Notes under the pieces: model-generated
What the model saw: the letters and a program-made list of their open reading frames with translations, nothing else
The model's database searches: none
Told to the model about the DNA's origin: nothing
Translations under genes and position numbers: made by a program
Shown here: one piece after another, positions 30,320 through 41,072 of the stretch
Layout: every line of letters starts with the position of its first letter
Numbering within the stretch: position 1 is the first letter of the stretch
Origin: an uncultured Chroococcidiopsis sp.
GTDB taxonomy: Bacteria; Cyanobacteriota; Cyanobacteriia; Cyanobacteriales; Chroococcidiopsidaceae
Direction of reading: 5' to 3'
Length of the DNA stretch: 64,000 nt
Assembly (NCBI GenBank): GCA_964248365.1
Contig: CAXTYC010000003.1
Span: 160,001 to 224,000 of the forward strand

Positions 30320-31375
30320 TCAAGTTATTAAAGCACTCAAAGTTTGGTTAATACTGGTATCAGATATGTCTGGCAAAGATAGGACTTTTTCTACATTGGT
30401 AAAATCTCTTTCTATTGATTTGAAATAAGTAGTATCGTAATGGTATAATAGCAAATTTTTAATAAAGTCTTCCCAGTTACTATTGTCTATTAACTGATAC
30501 CAATAATTTAATTTTTGTTTACCATATCGAGATTTTAGTCGTTCAAGTTTTGCTTTTAAGAAATGGGGATTGTTTTTTAAGTAAGGATATTCTTTTAAGA
30601 GAAATTGAACTCTACTATCTAATGGCAGTTGAATTTCTATCCCCGTTGCTTGTTTCATTTTATGCCATAAAGATGGAGGTAAATGAACTTGTCCAATTTT
30701 GTTACTTTCTGACTCTAGCCAAACAATTTTATTAGAATCAAATTGTTGCAGTTGTTGTAAAAGTAGAGATTCAAAGTACTTTTGTGAAGGTTGGGGAGTA
30801 GGTGAGTCTTGCCATTCTTCACCTAGTAGCGAACCGCGATGATTGGCTAGTGCTTCTAAGTCAAGTACTTGAGCGCCACGTTGCTGTAATTGGCGTAAAA
30901 TATGTGTCTTGCCACTTCCCGTTAGACCACACAATACTTTATAGGTATATTTGGCTGGTAAATCTTCTAATTGTTGGCGCACATAAGCCCGATAAGTCTT
31001 ATATCCACCTTCGACGACTGTAACCCGCCAGCCGATTTGTCCGAGTACCGTAGCCATACTATTAGAACGCTGTCCACCCCGCCAGCAGTAAATTAGTGGT
31101 TTATAGTCCTTGTCTTTTGAGGCAAAGTGTGCATCTAAATGTTGTGATATGTTCTTGGCTACCAAGACCGCGCCTGTTTTGCGGGCGGAGAAGGGGTTGA
31201 TTTGTTTGTATATGGTTCCTACCTGGGCGCGTTCAATGTCATCCAAAACGGGCAGGTTGATTGCACCTGGGATATGATCCAGGGCATATTCGACCGGGGA
31301 ACGAACATCAATAATTTCGCTGTAGGTTTCTGCCCAAGGCTGTTGGGTATATATCGGAAGTGGCATTACAGTCAA
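30320..31375 (-). CDS. mnmH: tRNA 2-selenouridine/geranyl-2-thiouridine synthase
   Basis: Rhodanese IDVRSP...HIPGA, YCWRGGQRS; P-loop GLTGSGKT; LANHRGS; ESESNKIG. Confidence 0.95.
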   Translation of the reverse strand: MTVMPLPIYTQQPWAETYSEIIDVRSPVEYALDHIPGAINLPVLDDIERAQVGTIYKQINPFSARKTGAVLVAKNISQHLDAHFASKDKDYKPLIYCWRGGQRSNSMATVLGQIGWRVTVVEGGYKTYRAYVRQQLEDLPAKYTYKVLCGLTGSGKTHILRQLQQRGAQVLDLEALANHRGSLLGEEWQDSPTPQPSQKYFESLLLQQLQQFDSNKIVWLESESNKIGQVHLPPSLWHKMKQATGIEIQLPLDSRVQFLLKEYPYLKNNPHFLKAKLERLKSRYGKQKLNYWYQLIDNSNWEDFIKNLLLYHYDTTYFKSIERDFTNVEKVLSLPDISDTSINQTLSALIT

Positions 31376-33902: not shown

Positions 33903-34637
33903 ATGACAGATAAAACAACTCGGCGTAATTTTCTGCTGACTAGCGTCGCTGTAGCTGGCGGGGTTGTAGGAAGTGGCGCAATAAAACAGAATTTGACCAA
34001 CAGTGCTGACTCATCAACACACAATGAGGCTAAAGCTACTAAATCATCTCGTTCCATGAACTTCAGTTCTGGAACGATGCCAGAACGTGTGCTGGGAGCT
34101 ACTAAAATAAAAGTACCTATCTTCGGTTTGGGGGGTGCAGGACAAACGCCACTATCCGACGAGGGAAAAGAAAAAGATGCTGTGGCTATGATTCAAAGAG
34201 CGTATGAACTGGGTATTCGCTACTTTGATACTGCTGCAAGTTATGGACCGAGTGAAGATTATCTGGGTAAGGTATTGCCAAATTATCGAGCAAAAATATT
34301 TCTGGCTAGTAAGACAGCCGAAAGGAATCGGGATGGTGCGTGGCGAGAATTAGAGCGATCGCTTAAACGTCTAAATACAGATTACCTGGATTTGTGGCAA
34401 ATGCACCATGTCGCATATCAACAAGACTTAGATACGCTTTTTGGTGCTAATGGAGCGATTAAAGCTATAGAAGAAGCAAAAGAACAAAAACTTATCCGCT
34501 TTAGTGGTATTACTGGTCATTATGATCCAAAAATGATCGCCCAAGGTTTGCGCCGCTATCGCTTTGACACCACACTTATTCCTGTAAATGCCGCTGATAA
34601 GCACCATCCACAGCCTTTTCTTCCTGCTGTGTTACCA
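33903..34637 (+). pseudogene. Tat-signal aldo/keto reductase, N-terminal part
   Basis: TRRNFL Tat motif, YFDTAASYG, ASKT, SLKRLNTDYLDLWQMH, GITGH; homology ends at PFLPAVLP. Confidence 0.88.
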
Positions 34638-35235
34638 AGAATTCCCAAATCGCAATACCAGAAGTTTTGGGGTTAGCCGCAATCAGCTTTACGTTATCTT
34701 TTGCCAAGTCTGCCCAAGTCTTGATACCTTTGGGATTGCCAGGGCGGGTGACAATAGCCGCCACAGATCGGGTGACAACGCTACCTTTGGGAGCTTCTAT
34801 TTCCCAACCCGATTCAATCAAACCTGCTTGCTCAATTCTATTGAGATCAAGACCTAGAGCTAGATGTACTACATCTGCTTCTATTGAACCTTCAATTACG
34901 GCACGGGTTTGAGAACCAGAACCACCGTAGCTAGTCTCGAAACTGACGTTTTGGTTCTGTTCTTTCTTCCACTTTTCGACAAATTTGGGAATGATGTGAT
35001 CGTGAGCTGCTCTAGTAACCGAGTAGGAAACTAACCTTAGTTTGACATCAGGTTTGGCAGCCGACGAGCTGCTTTCACAAGCAGCGATCGCCACACTCAA
35101 GCTAACTCCTACCAAAAACAGACACGCAAAGCTCCACAAAGAACGTCGGTTCAACCAATTTGCTATTGGTTGATACCACTGTCTAATATCCTGCAAAGTT
35201 TTAACAAGATAAGTCTGTTGCGCGATCGAGTGCAT
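34635..35235 (-). pseudogene. sbp: Sulfate ABC transporter substrate-binding protein paralogue, 3'-truncated
   Basis: Lipobox IAAC, SYGGSGSQTRAV, ADVVHLAL, RPGNPKGIKTWADL, NPKTSG; breaks after WEFL. Confidence 0.88.
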
Positions 35236-35299
35236 TATCTCTAACCTCAGTATCAAAGGTATAGTGACCAACAATCGGTAACTGATAACTGGTCACTGT

Positions 35300-36103
35300 T
35301 TAACCAAATCGACCGCTAATATATTCCTTAGCTTCTTCGGTACTAGGAGAATCAAAAATTTGTTCGGTAGGACTGAACTCAACTAATCTTCCTCGGCGCT
35401 TACCGCTGCGATCTGTTTCAGTATTGAAAAACGCAGTCAAATCTGAGATACGCGAGGCTTGCTGCATATTGTGGGTTACGACAATGATGGTGTACTGTTC
35501 CTTCAGTTCAAGACAAAGTTCTTCAACCTGTTTAGTTGAAATTGGATCGAGGGCAGAACATGGTTCATCCATCAGAATTACATCAGGCTTCATGGCGATC
35601 GCTCGTGCAATGCAAAGCCGCTGCTGTTGTCCTCCAGATAAATCTGTACCCTTTCCTTTCAGCTTGTCTTTCACCTCATCCCAAATCGCAGCTCGTCGCA
35701 GCGATTCCTCTACCAATTCGTCCATATTTCCCTTGTAACCGTTGGTTCGCGGACCAAAGGCAATGTTTTCATAGATTGACTTGGGAAAAGGATTCGGTCG
35801 CTGGAACACCATTCCGATCTGACGACGGACTTTCACCGGATTGATTTTGGAGCCATAAATGTTTTTCCCCTGGTAATCGATTCTGCCCTCAACCCTAGCG
35901 CCTGGGATCAAATCGTTCATGCGGTTAAAGCAGCGCAGCAGGGTACTTTTGCCACATCCTGAAGGTCCAATAAAAGCGATGATTTGTTTTTCAGGAATTT
36001 CCATATTCACTTCCTGAAGTGCCATAAAATCACCGTAGTAAACCTTGACACCTCTGACTTCAAAAGTTGCCGTAGCCAGTGTAGCTGTATTGTTAGAGCG
36101 CAT
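35300..36103 (-). CDS. pstB: PstB-like ABC ATPase
   Basis: [44 protein letters not shown]. Confidence 0.95.
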
Positions 36104-36185
36104 ACGTGTATTTTTCTAAGGTTCTATTACAGTTGAAATTCTTGCCAAGCTATGAGCTATTAACTATTAGCTATTAGCTTTCAAA

Positions 36186-37088
36186 TTATTTAAGTAACGA
36201 AAAGCGATTTCGGAAGTAAATTGCTACGCCATTTAGAACCAAAACTACGAACAATAAAACAATGATTGTTGCTGCTGCTGCGTTAGCAAAACCAGGCTCA
36301 GGGCGAGTGATATAACTGTAAATTTGGATAGGTAAAGCCATAAAGCGCTGAAACAAACCAGGATTGAATGTGAGAAAACTTACAGCTCCGATTACGAGTA
36401 GAGAAGCTGCATCACCAATTGCCCGTGAAACTGAAAGAATTACACCTGTTAAAATTCCTGGCACGGCATAAGGTAAGACATGATTCCATATCGTTTGCCA
36501 CTTAGTTGTTCCTAAGCCATAAGAAGCTTCTCTTAAGGCATTAGGAACACCTCGAATTGCCTCTCTAGAAGTGACAATAATTATCGGTAAAGACAGCAAG
36601 GATAAAGTTAGTGCGCCAGTAATCAAAGATGGACCAAAGCCCAAAAGATAATAAAAAACGCCCAAACCAAGTAACCCATAGACAATTGAAGGAACTCCAG
36701 CCAGGTTAGCAATGTTAATCTCGATAATATCTGTCCACCAAGCTTTCGGTGCATATTCTTCGAGATACAAAGCCGTTCCTACACCAATAGGTACAGCAAT
36801 TAAAATAACTAGTATTCCTAGAAAAATGCTGCCAAAAATAGCAGGACGTATGCCGCCTTTATCGGCGAATCGAGAAGGAGTCTCAGTTAAAAAACCAGGC
36901 TTTACGAGTGTTCCTATCCCATCTCTTAAGACATCGAAGACTAAGAGGGCAAGCACTACTAAACCAATGCTAAGACCGATTAAAAAGAGAATTTCAAAGA
37001 TTTTGCCAGTTTGTTCTCGTTTCTCTAACTGTGGATTAAACTCCTCAGTTTTTGAGGAAAAATCGTTTTGGTAAGAAGAAGTAGCCAT
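36186..37088 (-). CDS. pstA: PstA-like permease
   Basis: YLEEY, NLAGVPSIVYGLLGL, REASYGLG. Confidence 0.93.
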   Translation of the reverse strand: MATSSYQNDFSSKTEEFNPQLEKREQTGKIFEILFLIGLSIGLVVLALLVFDVLRDGIGTLVKPGFLTETPSRFADKGGIRPAIFGSIFLGILVILIAVPIGVGTALYLEEYAPKAWWTDIIEINIANLAGVPSIVYGLLGLGVFYYLLGFGPSLITGALTLSLLSLPIIIVTSREAIRGVPNALREASYGLGTTKWQTIWNHVLPYAVPGILTGVILSVSRAIGDAASLLVIGAVSFLTFNPGLFQRFMALPIQIYSYITRPEPGFANAAAATIIVLLFVVLVLNGVAIYFRNRFSLLK

Positions 37089-37197
37089 ATTTACGAAGCT
37101 GCAACAATACTTTTGACTTTGATTAGCCCGTCTCACCTGAAATATTTGTCAGAGTCAGAATTTTTCTGTGAACTCGCCCCTACGACTTTTGACTTCC

Positions 37198-38136
37198 TTA
37201 GTACTTTTCTTTATAGCGATTAGCAATCCAATGGCTGACGATATTTAAAGCTAGAGTAATCAAAAACAGAACAGCTCCCACGACGTACAAGGTTTTGTAA
37301 TTAAGACTGCCACGAGCGCTATCTCCTCCTGAGATTTGAGCCATATAAGCCGTCATTGTTCCTACTGATTGGAAGGGATTGATATTGAGTCGAGGCTGTT
37401 GCCCAGCAGCAATTACCACAATCATCGTTTCACCAACAGCTCTAGAAATGCCTAAAATAATCGCGGCAGCAATTCCAGAAAGAGCTGCGGGAAAGATAAT
37501 TTTGGTTATGACTTCCAGTTTTGTTACTCCCATTGCGTAAGCTCCTTCTCGTAAAGAGCGAGGAACAGATTGTAGAGCGTCTAAGCTAATGGAGCCAATT
37601 GTAGGCATTACCATGATCCCTGTCATTAGCCCAGCACTTAAGGCGTTAAAAACCTCAAGGGGAAAAAAGTTACGCAGAACAGGGGTGATAAATAACAGAG
37701 CAAAGTATCCAAAGACAACAGTAGGCACTCCCGCCAGCAGCTCTACCGCTGGGCGTAAAATCCGCGCTACCTTGGGTGAGGCATATTCGCTTAAGTAAAT
37801 AGCAGCAGATAAACCAAGAGGAATGGCAACGAGCATGGCGATCGTTGTCGTCAGTAGAGTGCCGTTGATTAGGGGCCAAATCCCAAAATGTTTCTGGGCA
37901 AATAAAGGTGTCCACTGAGTATCGAGCAAGAACTGAGCAAGTGTAACCTCTTGGAAAAACTCAAACGTCACCCGAAAGATAATAAAGACGATGCCAAAAG
38001 TCGTGAAGACGGAAATCAACGCGCAAGAAAATAATATCGCCTGGATAAATTTTTCTTGGAGATCGTCAGATGCCTCCTTGTTAAGCTTACGCCCGTCTTC
38101 TCTATCCAACTGGTTCCGAAAATTTGTGTCTTGCAT
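37198..38136 (-). CDS. pstC: PstC-like permease
   Basis: YLSEYA, ELLAGVPTVVFG, SRAVGETMIV. Confidence 0.93.
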   Translation of the reverse strand: MQDTNFRNQLDREDGRKLNKEASDDLQEKFIQAILFSCALISVFTTFGIVFIIFRVTFEFFQEVTLAQFLLDTQWTPLFAQKHFGIWPLINGTLLTTTIAMLVAIPLGLSAAIYLSEYASPKVARILRPAVELLAGVPTVVFGYFALLFITPVLRNFFPLEVFNALSAGLMTGIMVMPTIGSISLDALQSVPRSLREGAYAMGVTKLEVITKIIFPAALSGIAAAIILGISRAVGETMIVVIAAGQQPRLNINPFQSVGTMTAYMAQISGGDSARGSLNYKTLYVVGAVLFLITLALNIVSHWIANRYKEKY

Positions 38137-38179
38137 TGTAATATCTTGAATATCTCGATCTCTCTTTAAAGGAGTTTAG

Positions 38180-39184
38180 TTAAAGAAGTTTGGCGATCGG
38201 CTCACCTGGCTTGGCATCTTTGAATTTAGAACCAGTTTCTTTGGAGGTAAGTTTTTGCTTGATCTTGGGGTAAGCTTCATCGGGTAGCGCCACATAGCCT
38301 ATTTGATCGACCCATTTCCAAGAATTATCTATATAAAATTCAACAAACTTCTTTACTGCTGGTTCGTTATCCAGTGAGTTCTTACTGACATAGATAAAGA
38401 GAGGACGAGACAAAGGTGTATAAATATTCTTCACAACATTGTCTATAGGAACAGGCTTTTCGCACTGCCCTTGGGGATCTTCCACGGCAACCAAGTTTAA
38501 CCTGTCTTGGTTGGCAATGTAGTAAGATATCCCAACATAAGCTAGACCATTCTCGTCGCCCAAAACCCCTTGGACAAGGACGTTTTGGTTATTGCTAGGA
38601 GTATAGTCTGTGCGGCTATTTCTGGCTTTGCCAGTAACGGCTTGCGTGAAATAATCAAATGTCCCAGTATCAGAACCAGGGGCATAAAGCCTTAGCGGTC
38701 GGTCGGGAAACTTGGAATTAACTTGATTCCAGTTGGTGACTTTACCAGTTGATTTGGAGTTCCACATTTTATTGAGTTCTTTGATACTCAGGCATTTAGC
38801 GAAGTTATTTTGACGATTCACAATTACAGCCATTCCATCTAGAGCAATAGGCAGCTCTACAATCTCAATTGAGTTCTTTTTACAGGTTTTAATTTCTTCA
38901 TCTCTAATGGCTCGTGATGCCCCAACAACATTAATGTCACCGTTGCAAAACTTACTAAATCCGCCTCCAGTACCACTTGAAGCAACGCTAACCTGAGCAT
39001 CAGGGTTTTCTTTCTGAAATTCCTCGGCAACTGCTTGATGGATGGGATAACCTACAGCCCCACCATCAATGCTCACCTCTGTTTGTTTTTCCTCTGCCCC
39101 ATTGCTGCAAGCAGTTATACCGCAGGTAATTACTATCAGAGATGTCAGTAAAACATGACACTTTAATCGGCTGTTAAAGAGCAT
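38180..39184 (-). CDS. pstS: PstS-family lipoprotein with divergent ligand-binding motifs
   Basis: Lipobox ITAC, SGTGGGF, ASR, GTFDYFT, PLSRPLFIYV; non-canonical DGGAVG and SNNQN. Confidence 0.9.
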   Translation of the reverse strand: MLFNSRLKCHVLLTSLIVITCGITACSNGAEEKQTEVSIDGGAVGYPIHQAVAEEFQKENPDAQVSVASSGTGGGFSKFCNGDINVVGASRAIRDEEIKTCKKNSIEIVELPIALDGMAVIVNRQNNFAKCLSIKELNKMWNSKSTGKVTNWNQVNSKFPDRPLRLYAPGSDTGTFDYFTQAVTGKARNSRTDYTPSNNQNVLVQGVLGDENGLAYVGISYYIANQDRLNLVAVEDPQGQCEKPVPIDNVVKNIYTPLSRPLFIYVSKNSLDNEPAVKKFVEFYIDNSWKWVDQIGYVALPDEAYPKIKQKLTSKETGSKFKDAKPGEPIAKLL

Positions 39185-39216
39185 TGCAATTATTTAAAAA
39201 TGCTTACTTGAAACTA

Positions 39217-39435
39217 ATTCTACTTAAAGTCGGTAGGAATACCGTGTTAAGTGATTATAAAGTTTAATTGCAGGTAAAATCATTAAGTTATGTAAAATAT
39301 GTTTGGCATACAGGCGATCGCGTCCTACTTCCGCTTTCAACAAGATCTACCAATCTGGCTGAGGCAAAAAGTTAATTCGATAATCCTACCCACCATTGAA
39401 GTTTGTCGAATATACTGCGGTAAATCGGTAGGTAT
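39217..39435. promoter_or_regulatory. Two 24-bp imperfect palindromic operator-like sites in the divergent pstS/cysK intergenic region
   Basis: ATTCTACTTAAAGTCGGTAGGAAT (39217-39240) and ATACTGCGGTAAATCGGTAGGTAT (39412-39435), 17/24 identical. Confidence 0.55.
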
Positions 39436-39579
39436 TACGGTATTTAAGTAAACAAAGTTAATTAATTAAAGGAGGACACTTGAAGGTGACGCAGATATGG
39501 TTCCACAATGCTGTAACCTCATCTGCAAGCTGCTTCCGAACAAAATGGCTGGTCTACTTACATTCTTTGGTGTTTAAGT

Positions 39580-40053
39580 ATGGCAACTTATAAAACAATT
39601 GTGCAAGCGATCGGCAGAACTCCCCTAATTCAGTTAAACCAAATTACCCAGAATATTACATCTACTATCTATGCCAAGCTAGAATCTCTCAATCCTGGCG
39701 GCAGCACTAAAGACAGAATTGCACTTGCCATGATCGAAGCGGCGGAAAAAGAAGGACTCCTGCAACCAGGTGGAACCATCATTGAAGCCACAGCAGGCAA
39801 TACAGGTGTTGGTTTAGCACTGATTGCTGCTGTTAAAAAGTATTGGTACATTTTTGTACTACCTGACAAAATGAGTCAGGAAAAGATCAACTTGCTCAAA
39901 GCTTATGGTGCAGAAGTGGTTATTACTCATACCTCTGTGCCGCCTGACTCTCCCGAAAGCTACAACGGTGTAGCAGAACGGCTGACTAAAGAAATTCCTG
40001 GCGCGTACAGACCAAATCAATTCGAGAATCCTCATAATCCCTTGGCTCATTAG
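39580..40053 (+). pseudogene. Cysteine synthase / cystathionine beta-synthase family, truncated at the IS
   Basis: IGRTPL, KLESLNPGGSTKDR (PLP lysine), EATAGNTG, PPDSPESY, NQFENPHN; stop codon supplied by the IS end. Confidence 0.9.
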
Positions 40054-40958
40054 ACCTCTTGCGTGAATAGGGGGTGAGTGAGTAAAAGTAGGGTAAGGAG
40101 GAATAGTCCATGACCTACGAGCAACTTGCACGTTTGAGCTCTAATAGCTTCAAACGCAAGTGCGCAGTTCATCGTGAAACCTTTGAGCAGATGGTTCAAA
40201 CGCGGCGCCCCCATCTTGACCGTCAGGGTAAGCGAGGCGGACAGGCTAAACTGAGCGTCGAAGATCAATTGTTGTTGGTGCTAGAGTATTGGCGGGAATA
40301 TCGTACTCAATTTCATATTGCCACTAGTTGGGGATTAAGCGAGTCTGCTGTGTGCCGCTTAATCCAAAAGGTAGAAACGCTGTTGCTTGAGTGTGGTAAG
40401 TTTCGCTTGCCAGGTAAAAAGCAGCTATATCAAAATGCCTACACTTGGAATGTGCTGGTCGTCGATGTCACGCAAAGCCCAACCCTCCGCCCAAAAAAAA
40501 ACAGCGCGCTTACTACAGTGGGAAGAAAAAGCGGCACACTTTGAAAGCACAAGTGATAGTTAACCAAGCAACAGGACAAATTATTTGTACTGCCTTTGGC
40601 AAGGGGCGAGTGCATGATTTTCGCTTGTTCAAACTGCATCGGTTTCCCATGCTACCACAGCAGTTATGCTTAGCTGACAAGGGATATCAGGGCATCACCA
40701 ACCTGCATAGCGCCAGTTGCACCCCAACCAAGAAACCCCGCCGTCCGGCAAATTTGAGTAAGTCTGAGCCCCAACACAATCGTCTGCTCGCACGATTGCG
40801 TGTTGTAGCTGAACACGTCAACCGGCGGTTGAAGATTTTTCGGATTTTGGCAGAGCGTTACCCTAATCGTAGACGGCGTTTTGGCTTACGCTTCAATTTG
40901 CTCGCTGGAATTATCAACCTTGAACTTGCTCTGTGTTCCTGATTCACGCAAGAGGTCT
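40052..40958 (+). mobile_element. IS5-family (ISL2/IS702-like) insertion sequence, 907 bp
   Basis: 17-bp perfect TIRs AGACCTCTTGCGTGAAT; ATT on both flanks; split transposase. Confidence 0.95.
40110..40942 (+). CDS. IS5-family transposase in two ORFs joined at an A9 slippery site (40493-40501)
   Basis: HTH YWREYRT, VVDVT, RPKKKQ, YSGKKKRHT, LADKGYQG, RVVAEH. Confidence 0.9.
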
Positions 40959-40961
40959 ATT

Positions 40962-41072
40962 GTTAGGGTGGCTAAGGCTTTTAAACCACTTGCTGATCAG
41001 GAATTAGCAGCCATCGAGCAACGTACTGCTGCTATTTGGGAAGATAATACTTTCTTTCGCGCTTGGGGGTGA
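40962..41072 (+). pseudogene. Aldo/keto reductase C-terminal fragment
   Basis: VRVAKAFKPLADQELAAIEQRTAAIWEDNTFFRAWG* matches the usual end of this cyanobacterial AKR family; same strand as the 33903 fragment. Confidence 0.8.

Follow-up and report, generated by a model that had tools for sequence, protein, structure and literature searches.

A SphX-type Pst operon with a remodeled anion pocket as a probable importer of a non-phosphate anion in a cyanobacterial sulfur regulon

Which anion is imported by a Pst-type transporter whose binding protein has lost the hydroxyls that contact protonated phosphate and whose operon lies among sulfur genes? The question is raised by a locus of an uncultured Chroococcidiopsis sp., where the window—the whole analyzed stretch of 64,000 nucleotides, cyanobacterial in its gene content—carries the open reading frames pstS, pstC, pstA, and pstB on the minus strand from 39184 to 35300. 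All four are intact, as an earlier note on this DNA had stated, and pass the NCBIfam cut-offs of TIGR02136 (pstS), TIGR02138 (pstC), TIGR00974 (pstA), and TIGR00972 (pstB). They belong to a variant clade, the forms of which are marked by an asterisk (pstS*, pstC*, pstA*, pstB*, and sbp*/Sbp*). Judged from the sequence, the operon probably encodes a sulfur-regulon importer of a non-phosphate XO3-Y anion that is built from SphX-type Pst parts, a reading to which we assign a probability of roughly 0.68.

The anion site of PstS* and its permease

The gene pstS* (38180..39184, minus strand, as are all positions in the operon and in sbp* given below) encodes a 334-amino-acid lipoprotein (Cys26) with an S-type, SphX-like PstS fold and a remodeled anion site. 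Its structure model, with a predicted local distance difference test score (pLDDT) of 85, exhibits the PstS fold and matches Planctomyces 4JWO with a Z score of 33.0 and a root-mean-square deviation of 3.9 over 281 residues; a search of the ESM Atlas returned phosphate-binding clusters only. The hallmarks of the D-type, E. coli-like PstS are Asp56, with its low-barrier hydrogen bond, and Arg135 (PMC13614923). PstS* has Ser90 and Pro169 at these positions and reaches 47 bits on TIGR00975 (cut-off 205) and, hence, falls outside the D-type.

Residues of the pocket were mapped onto the SphX numbering by motif only, with Ser15–Thr17 placed on positions 42–44. The offset is constant at +27 in 9 of 10 positions compared from Thr45 onward, among them Thr45, Ser63, Asp89, Pro142, Ser146, Gly147, Thr148, and Asp173, and amounts to +29 for Arg231. 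The three motifs read previously are all present. IDGGAVGYP spans 39044-39070 (the formerly noted 39050-39067 being its core DGGAVG) and places G42-A43-V44 (39053..39061) where SphX has Ser15-Ser16-Thr17. In PGSDTGT (38660..38680), the ligands of the phosphate oxygens O2 and O3 are kept as Pro169, Thr173, Gly174, and Thr175 (SphX Pro142, Ser146, Gly147, and Thr148). SNNQN (38582..38596; clade consensus SHNQN, canonical SEDDN) contains Gln200 in place of the water-linked Asp173 of SphX. The canonical forms DGSSTVFP and ASEDDN are seen in sister proteins. Also kept are the O2 ligand Thr72 (SphX Thr45; 38969..38971) and, within Ser90-Arg91 (38912..38917), the O1/O2 ligand that corresponds to Ser63. 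Arg260 (SphX Arg231; 38405..38407) and Asp116 (38837-38839) maintain the Asp-Arg pair of a triad whose Thr partner is gone.

In SphX, the ligands of O1—the protonated oxygen of phosphate—are Ser15 OG, Thr17 N, Thr17 OG1, and Ser63 OG (Table S3, PMC13614923), and Thr17 is the proposed proton acceptor (PMC13614923), which agrees with the earlier statement that hydroxyls of the canonical GSST motif contact protonated phosphate. Wild-type SphX binds phosphate with 0.44 uM, the variant T17A shows no detectable binding, and no thermal shift is scored as sulfate binding (PMC13614923). The same ligand residues are used by SAR11 PstS, where the equivalent of Ser16 is an oxygen ligand, too (PMC12421899). 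The clade loses Ser15 and Thr17, meaning two of the three O1 hydroxyls, plus the Ser16 hydroxyl and Asp173. Every protein ligand of O2 and O3 is retained, with Ser146 changed to Thr. Instead of the Ser-Ser/Thr-Thr/Ser triplet with the Thr17 acceptor, the clade contains Gly/Ala-Ala-Val. Such a site may fit three oxygens and one larger or less polar apex.

The remaining genes, pstC* (37198..38136), pstA* (36186..37088, alternative bound 37136), and the ABC ATPase gene pstB* (35300..36103), are intact. In the E. coli cryo-EM structure, arginines of the permease bind phosphate (PMC12976172). PstC* retains the equivalents of Arg237 and Glu241 of this membrane anion site in RAVGET (37426-37443), and PstA* that of Arg220 in RAIGDA (36408-36425), as determined by comparing 68 clade with 12 canonical proteins for each subunit. 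In PstA, the canonical GET is replaced by GDA throughout the clade (Glu224-Thr to Asp-Ala). The translocator is not of the CysT, CysW, and CysA kind, with 26 bits for PstC* and 44 bits for PstA* on TIGR02139 (cut-off 246).

Clade, gene neighborhood, and sulfur box

The substitutions are not private to this strain. Motifs of the forms DG[AG][AS]VG, SDTGT, and S[HQN]NQN, or similar to the latter two, are carried by 110 of the 120 best homologs, the other 10 being canonical tandem PstS. Across 111 clade sequences (query included), position 42 is Gly/Ala in 111, position 43 is Ala in 110, and position 200 is Gln in 109; V44, T72, S90, D116, T173, T175, N199, N201, and R260 are invariant (111/111). 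The outside comparison consists of 170 domains from the best 150 representatives at 50% identity, 15 of which are gapped at the triplet. The 155 ungapped domains show Ser at position 42 in 150 and Thr/Ser at position 44 in 144 cases, and the clade triplet in P0165 only. The motif change is beyond chance because Val44 in 111/111 clade sequences faces Thr/Ser in 144/155 of these distant representatives. In a 50-row tree, the clade forms one side of a 99/98 branch with a stem of 1.4 substitutions per site; the root of this tree is insecure because its sole outgroup row is a long branch. The ratio of nonsynonymous to synonymous substitution (dN/dS) against the related locus L031 is 0.18 for pstS, 0.11 for pstC, 0.16 for pstA, and 0.07 for pstB, and pstS*-C-A-B is, by this measure, under purifying selection. 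The invariant residues and a dN/dS below 0.2 uphold the earlier view that general decay is not at work. One subclade carries the motifs DGGTVG and STQNQN.

The clade is found in 113 of 127 genomes of the genus g39 and in 19 of 401 genomes of the phylum (five candidates scored per genome), where related genomes count as kin and not as independent cases. Named records come from Nostoc, Scytonema, Calothrix, Fischerella, Microcoleus, and Microcystis; among the 120 best hits and the best 150 representatives, no member is non-cyanobacterial. Canonical PstS is also present in all five carriers examined and in the own genome, which further holds two E. coli-type pstS, a separate pstCAB, an arsR-linked pst cluster, sbpA-cysTW, and cysA. 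In the arsR-linked cluster (L123, G000:C2:113268-117029), a gene that reads as ArsR-like lies directly upstream of pstS(GSSTV)-pstC-pstA-pstB, possibly serving arsenate-responsive phosphate uptake. Two genomes contain two pstS* each (L044/L080 and L050/L081), one copy with sbp* and without permeases and the other the reverse. In Scytonema-type loci (L043:11266-12249 and L050), a second PBP_like_2 protein is encoded convergently just after pstS*.

Gene neighborhoods were compared in 80 genome loci and 80 metagenome loci. An sbp-family gene occurs upstream of pstS* or downstream of pstB* in 58/80 genome loci, and 53/80 contain the Sbp* form SG[IV][AG][INV]W. Any sulfur gene—counting, besides the sbp family, ssuACDE, sfnB, mtnB/D, metX/Y/H, the cystathionine beta-synthase (CBS) gene, and CymR-like Rrf2—is found in 73/80, and six of the remaining seven loci are shorter than 10 kb. 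By pattern, 44/80 metagenome loci were sorted as clade, with Sbp* in 35/44; the pattern missed three more (L279, L296, and L298), and several metagenome loci duplicate genome records. Sulfur linkage persists across differing gene orders and families, so the neighborhood noted for this one locus is a conserved one. In Sbp*, Gly132—which we take to contact sulfate in the sulfate-binding protein—is replaced by Ile/Val (E. coli CysP has Asn there), and Arg134 is absent. Residue 136 of Sbp* varies between Glu, Gln, and Asn, which led us to discard the notion of an acid acquired for phosphate binding. In Microcystis-type operons (L102, L144-L146, and L282-L309), the lead gene is of the CadD family, and a Ca/cation exchanger and another CadD come after the operon.

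Motif discovery in the DNA preceding the first operon gene yields a 28-bp palindrome, TACGGTA-N12-TACCGTA. Scored with a 28-bp matrix that was trained on genomes other than the own one, a box of at least 14 bits lies within 3.5 kb upstream in 61 of the 69 loci with enough DNA, a partly circular count; operons outside the training set (L147, L148, L149, and L151) reach 19.8-23.7 bits. The own genome has four sites of at least 20 bits, at sbpA-cysTW, a TTC38-like gene, cysA, and a Crp-family/apbC pair, and three shuffles have none. Ranked next are rimO and then the pstS* operon, with a pstS*-proximal box at 39220..39247 (15.8 bits, genome rank 6) and a second at 39415..39442 (13.2 bits) that is closer to the divergent CBS gene; below 16 bits, genome-wide site counts equal those of shuffles. 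None of 25 canonical SphX-type upstream regions reaches 14 bits (best 4.1). A paired Pho box pattern matches 1/75 clade and 4/25 canonical upstream regions and is insensitive because so few of the latter match.

In the genome G275, 20 regions were picked by eye from 28 pattern matches, of which 13 have intergenic sites, 2 have sites inside genes, and 5 lack a site of 13 bits. The box leads metY, tauD, sbp, two ssuD, sfnG, dszC/sfnB, a Crp-family gene, and some genes without a sulfur link; no phosphate gene is among the 19 box-led proteins. Genes for two SomB-type porins and two aldo-keto reductases likewise lie under the box there (L174 and L180). The sites at G000:C21:42812, C3:56997, and C1:227672 of the own genome precede rimO (methylthiotransferase) and the apbC/Crp-family pair, both named above, and, weakly, sqdB. 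The TTC38-like tetratricopeptide repeat (TPR) protein of about 430 amino acids (L116:5867-7177 = G000:C14:115866-117176) has a 22-bit box and no Pfam or NCBIfam hit, and its gene flanks the operon in six loci (L052, L057, L060, L062, L066, and L068); by its box, it is an uncharacterized sulfur-regulon member. The box-carrying Crp-family protein, for which only a sub-cut-off PtrA hit is obtained, may be CysR-like. In Synechococcus elongatus, sulfate genes are under the control of CysR, the regulon of which is undefined in the parts of the sources examined (PMC11420160 and PMC12016511). CymR-like Rrf2 flanks six operons, and the own rrf2-cysK promoter contains no box.

In Nostoc punctiforme, Npun_R4761-R4757 probably represent this operon, as judged from gene and annotation order (sbp, PBP, pstC, pstA, and pstB). 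Warshan et al. 2017 (PMC5702739) described a co-localized "sulfate/phosphate transport" regulon of three phosphate and one sulfate transporter genes in moss-symbiotic Nostoc. In the parts of that paper examined, this regulon counts as ordinary transport of phosphate and sulfate, with no mention of pocket changes or operator; the examined parts of PMC7784912 do not mention the Npun_R4761-R4757 tags. Upon chemical moss contact, R4761, R4760, R4759, and R4758 go down by 0.4-0.5 log2 alongside sbpA, cysT, cysW, and cysA, and R4108-R4111 go up, not significantly (PMC5702739 supplement). Upon physical contact, R4110 and R4111, from the canonical pstS/pstC, go down by 4.8 and 4.1 log2, and R4761-R4757 change by -0.8 to +1.5 (PMC5702739 supplement).

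The neighboring sbp and CBS-like genes, which the earlier note had taken as genes, are both fragments in this strain. The 5' part of sbp* (34636..35232), an altered sulfate-binding-protein paralog with NPKTSGIAIWEFL versus SGGARWNF, ends after ...SGIAIWEFL at about 34636 and stays under the TIGR00971 cut-off. The CBS-like 5' fragment (39580..40053, plus strand) encodes 157 amino acids and is cut by an IS5-family element (40053..40957, plus strand) that has 16-bp terminal inverted repeats and is single copy in the assembly. The missing halves of both genes were not found elsewhere in the own genome, and both genes continue intact on contigs of related strains. An aldo-keto reductase gene, uninterrupted in a related strain, is here split by a 5.4-kb block plus the IS5 into a 5' part (33903..34637, plus strand) and a frame read as its 3' tail at about 40962-41072. 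In the contig of run X1, 34637 is joined to 40962 with 174 other letters between them; the contigs of run X2 diverge from the window past 34635 and past 40052, and a loose end of X2 can be read as continuing sbp*. Together with the inverted repeats of IS5 at 40053 and 40957, these contig joints suggest that the block moved together with IS5 into the aldo-keto reductase gene in this strain. The tRNA 2-selenouridine synthase gene mnmH lies at 30320-31375, 3 kb from the block; a selenium link via this gene is unsupported, as it is absent among the recurring operon neighbors.

Candidate anions and rival explanations

In the proposed mechanism, a SphX-type Pst importer would have been recruited into the cyanobacterial sulfur-starvation regulon. 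Going by published structures, three anion oxygens would be bound by backbone NH groups together with Thr72, Ser90, Thr173, and Thr175. The fourth apex, which in SphX is the phosphate O-H between Ser15 and Thr17, would become a roomier, mostly apolar Gly/Ala-Val niche that could seat the terminal sulfur of thiosulfate, and the acids near the pocket would be neutralized (EDD to HNQ). Upon sulfur shortage, the box would be released, and PstS* would capture the anion and hand it over to PstC*A*, whose two arginines may still act as a general oxyanion site, with uptake powered by PstB*.

The earlier proposal of a Pst scaffold repurposed in the sulfur response stands as to the clade, the neighborhood, the operator shared with sbpA-cysTW and cysA, and the loss of the proton acceptor; as to the ligand, it loses ground for plain sulfate, the uptake of which looks redundant because cysT is present in 49/50 carriers (the genomes of 50 of the 80 loci). 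A replacement of CysTWA by PstS*CAB is rejected on the same count. Strict dependence on alkanesulfonate use is rejected as well: ssuD exceeds its cut-off in only 35/50 carriers, and searches of the own genome found no ssuD and no tauD. This distribution of ssuD favors an inorganic ligand. Thiosulfate is the leading single candidate, although a tentative one; a small sulfonate or sulfate ester is about half as likely, and sulfite, thiophosphate, sulfamate, or a selenium analog, taken together, and finally sulfate are each slightly less likely again. These four options add up to the 0.68 given above. The conversion of the whole PstSCAB into a dedicated importer of thiosulfate (or a related XO3-S/XO3-C anion), with a co-evolved Sbp paralog as a second receptor, is somewhat less likely than not. 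A link to sulfatases is unsupported, since the own-genome sulfatase has no box; the box-adjacent sulfatase of G455 is probably exported because of its twin-arginine-like leader. YeeE is found in one of five carriers, too few for use as evidence. In one pstS* carrier (L243, G453:C1:2029492-2033430), a YeeE-family transporter and a neighboring rhodanese-like gene share a region that contains several box matches; the pair is a candidate thiosulfate module.

The most serious rival is a low-affinity phosphate importer that is induced by sulfur starvation and serves polyphosphate storage, or phospholipids that replace sulfolipid, with the hydroxyl loss merely detuning affinity. We consider this unlikely, at about one third of the weight of a non-phosphate anion. 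Sulfur-deprived cyanobacteria and algae do accumulate polyphosphate (review PMC7332688), and the main support for the rival is a gene for the polyphosphate kinase PPK2, located between pstB* and sbp* in 3/80 operons (L037, L038:4548-5519, and L041); in L038, it starts 18 bp after pstB*. PPK2 is found in 0/44 metagenome clade loci, though, and in the own genome it sits elsewhere and without a box. The receptor gives a similarly divided picture. Thr148, equivalent to the retained Thr175, has been proposed as a back-up proton acceptor, and Ser13Ala in C. perfringens PBP-1 weakens binding only about 30-fold (PMC13614923). On the other hand, T17A alone abolishes detectable binding in SphX, the closest characterized relative, and the clade lacks S15, S16, and D173 in addition. 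One subclade regains a hydroxyl at position 43 (DGGTVG), and the phosphate-binding arginines of the permease are unchanged; against detuning, the new pocket residues are invariant and do not drift. The canonical PstS of the carriers examined and of the own genome and the lack of phosphate genes among the box-led proteins of G275 likewise weigh against this rival.

Other observations weigh against the proposed sulfur-regulon importer. The boxes in the window are modest and common to the divergent CBS gene, and no box is present at the cadD-led Microcystis-type operons (16/40 metagenome loci; L144-L146) or at L039 and L046-L048; Microcystis-type carriers without an operon box still hold box-like sites elsewhere in the genome. 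Beside the operon, no thiosulfate-specific enzyme recurs in the 80 genome loci. In Nostoc, physical contact raised R4757/R4758 and lowered R4760/R4761 (PMC5702739 supplement), and Npun_R4760 is matched to PstS* only by gene order.

Improbable is a PstS*CAB that acts mainly as a sensor or scaffold, or as a translocator served chiefly by Sbp* with PstS* as an auxiliary. Pst signals through PhoU/PhoR, and a PAS histidine kinase gene is divergent from pstS* in three loci without a box; sbp*-pstS* without pstC/A within the locus DNA occurs in 9/80 loci. These counts are opposed by pstS*-CAB without any sbp in 22/80 loci and by the window itself, where pstS*CAB is still intact after the loss of sbp*. 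Annotated neighbors include no recurring phoU-like cluster, and the permease retains an intact anion site in the membrane. A decaying or neutral pst duplicate with incidental sulfur neighbors, as the two fragmentary neighbors and the transposon-moved block might suggest, is highly improbable, being contradicted by the invariant residues, the low dN/dS, the presence in 113/127 g39 genomes, and the sulfur linkage kept across gene orders and families.

Relation to known systems

No description of the clade, its pocket, or its operator was found in the full texts searched, a set that leaves out subscription papers, unread supplements, and bioRxiv supplements. If a dedicated thiosulfate-type importer is correct, it would represent a natural switch of a textbook phosphate-selective receptor to sulfur and a third inorganic-sulfur route for cyanobacteria, near-core in one large Nostoc-type genus. 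PstS versus Sbp is the classic case of phosphate/sulfate discrimination, and a clade without the proton-accepting side of the pocket would offer a testable selectivity switch. The databases examined list the clade genes as phosphate transporters, and the genes are present in 113/127 g39 genomes; therefore, inferences on phosphorus limitation from "pst" expression may partly read a sulfur signal, which concerns soil, crust, and plant-symbiotic cyanobacteria. Should the low-affinity phosphate importer be correct instead, its sulfur-starvation wiring would offer a molecular entry point to the polyphosphate accumulation long known from cyanobacteria starved of sulfur.

The closest known system is SphX (Sll0679) of Synechocystis PCC 6803 (PDB 9WP7), which, like PstS*, is an S-type protein of TIGR02136 from an operon in pstS-C-A-B order. 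Both have Pro in place of E. coli Arg135 and share Thr45, Ser63, Gly147, Thr148, and the Asp89-Arg231 pair. In contrast to SphX, PstS* has Gly/Ala, Ala, and Val for Ser15, Ser16, and Thr17 and Gln for Asp173, and its operon carries an sbp paralog and a sulfur box, the latter apparently in place of a Pho box. The fold is also that of SAR11 PstS (PDB 9JWY, PMC12421899) and of Planctomyces 4JWO. Compared with SAR11 PstS, three of six side-chain hydroxyl donors (Ser32, Ser33, and Thr34) are gone. The enlarged cavity of SAR11 PstS binds glycerol-3-phosphate weakly (PMC12421899), and PstS* probably has the same cavity because the Pro is retained.

In proposed function—uptake of a fully ionized sulfur oxyanion under sulfur starvation—PstS*CAB resembles Sbp/CysP-CysT(U)WA of E. 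coli and the cyanobacterial SbpA-CysTWA. Cyanobacteria are not known to have a CysP-type receptor. The operon shares its operator with sbpA-cysTW and cysA and contains an Sbp-family gene. Unlike in CysTWA, the translocator and the main binding protein are of Pst descent, and the carriers keep a normal cysT. Hence, PstS*CAB consists of Pst parts without the phosphate acceptor and probably works like Sbp/CysP-CysTWA from outside that family.

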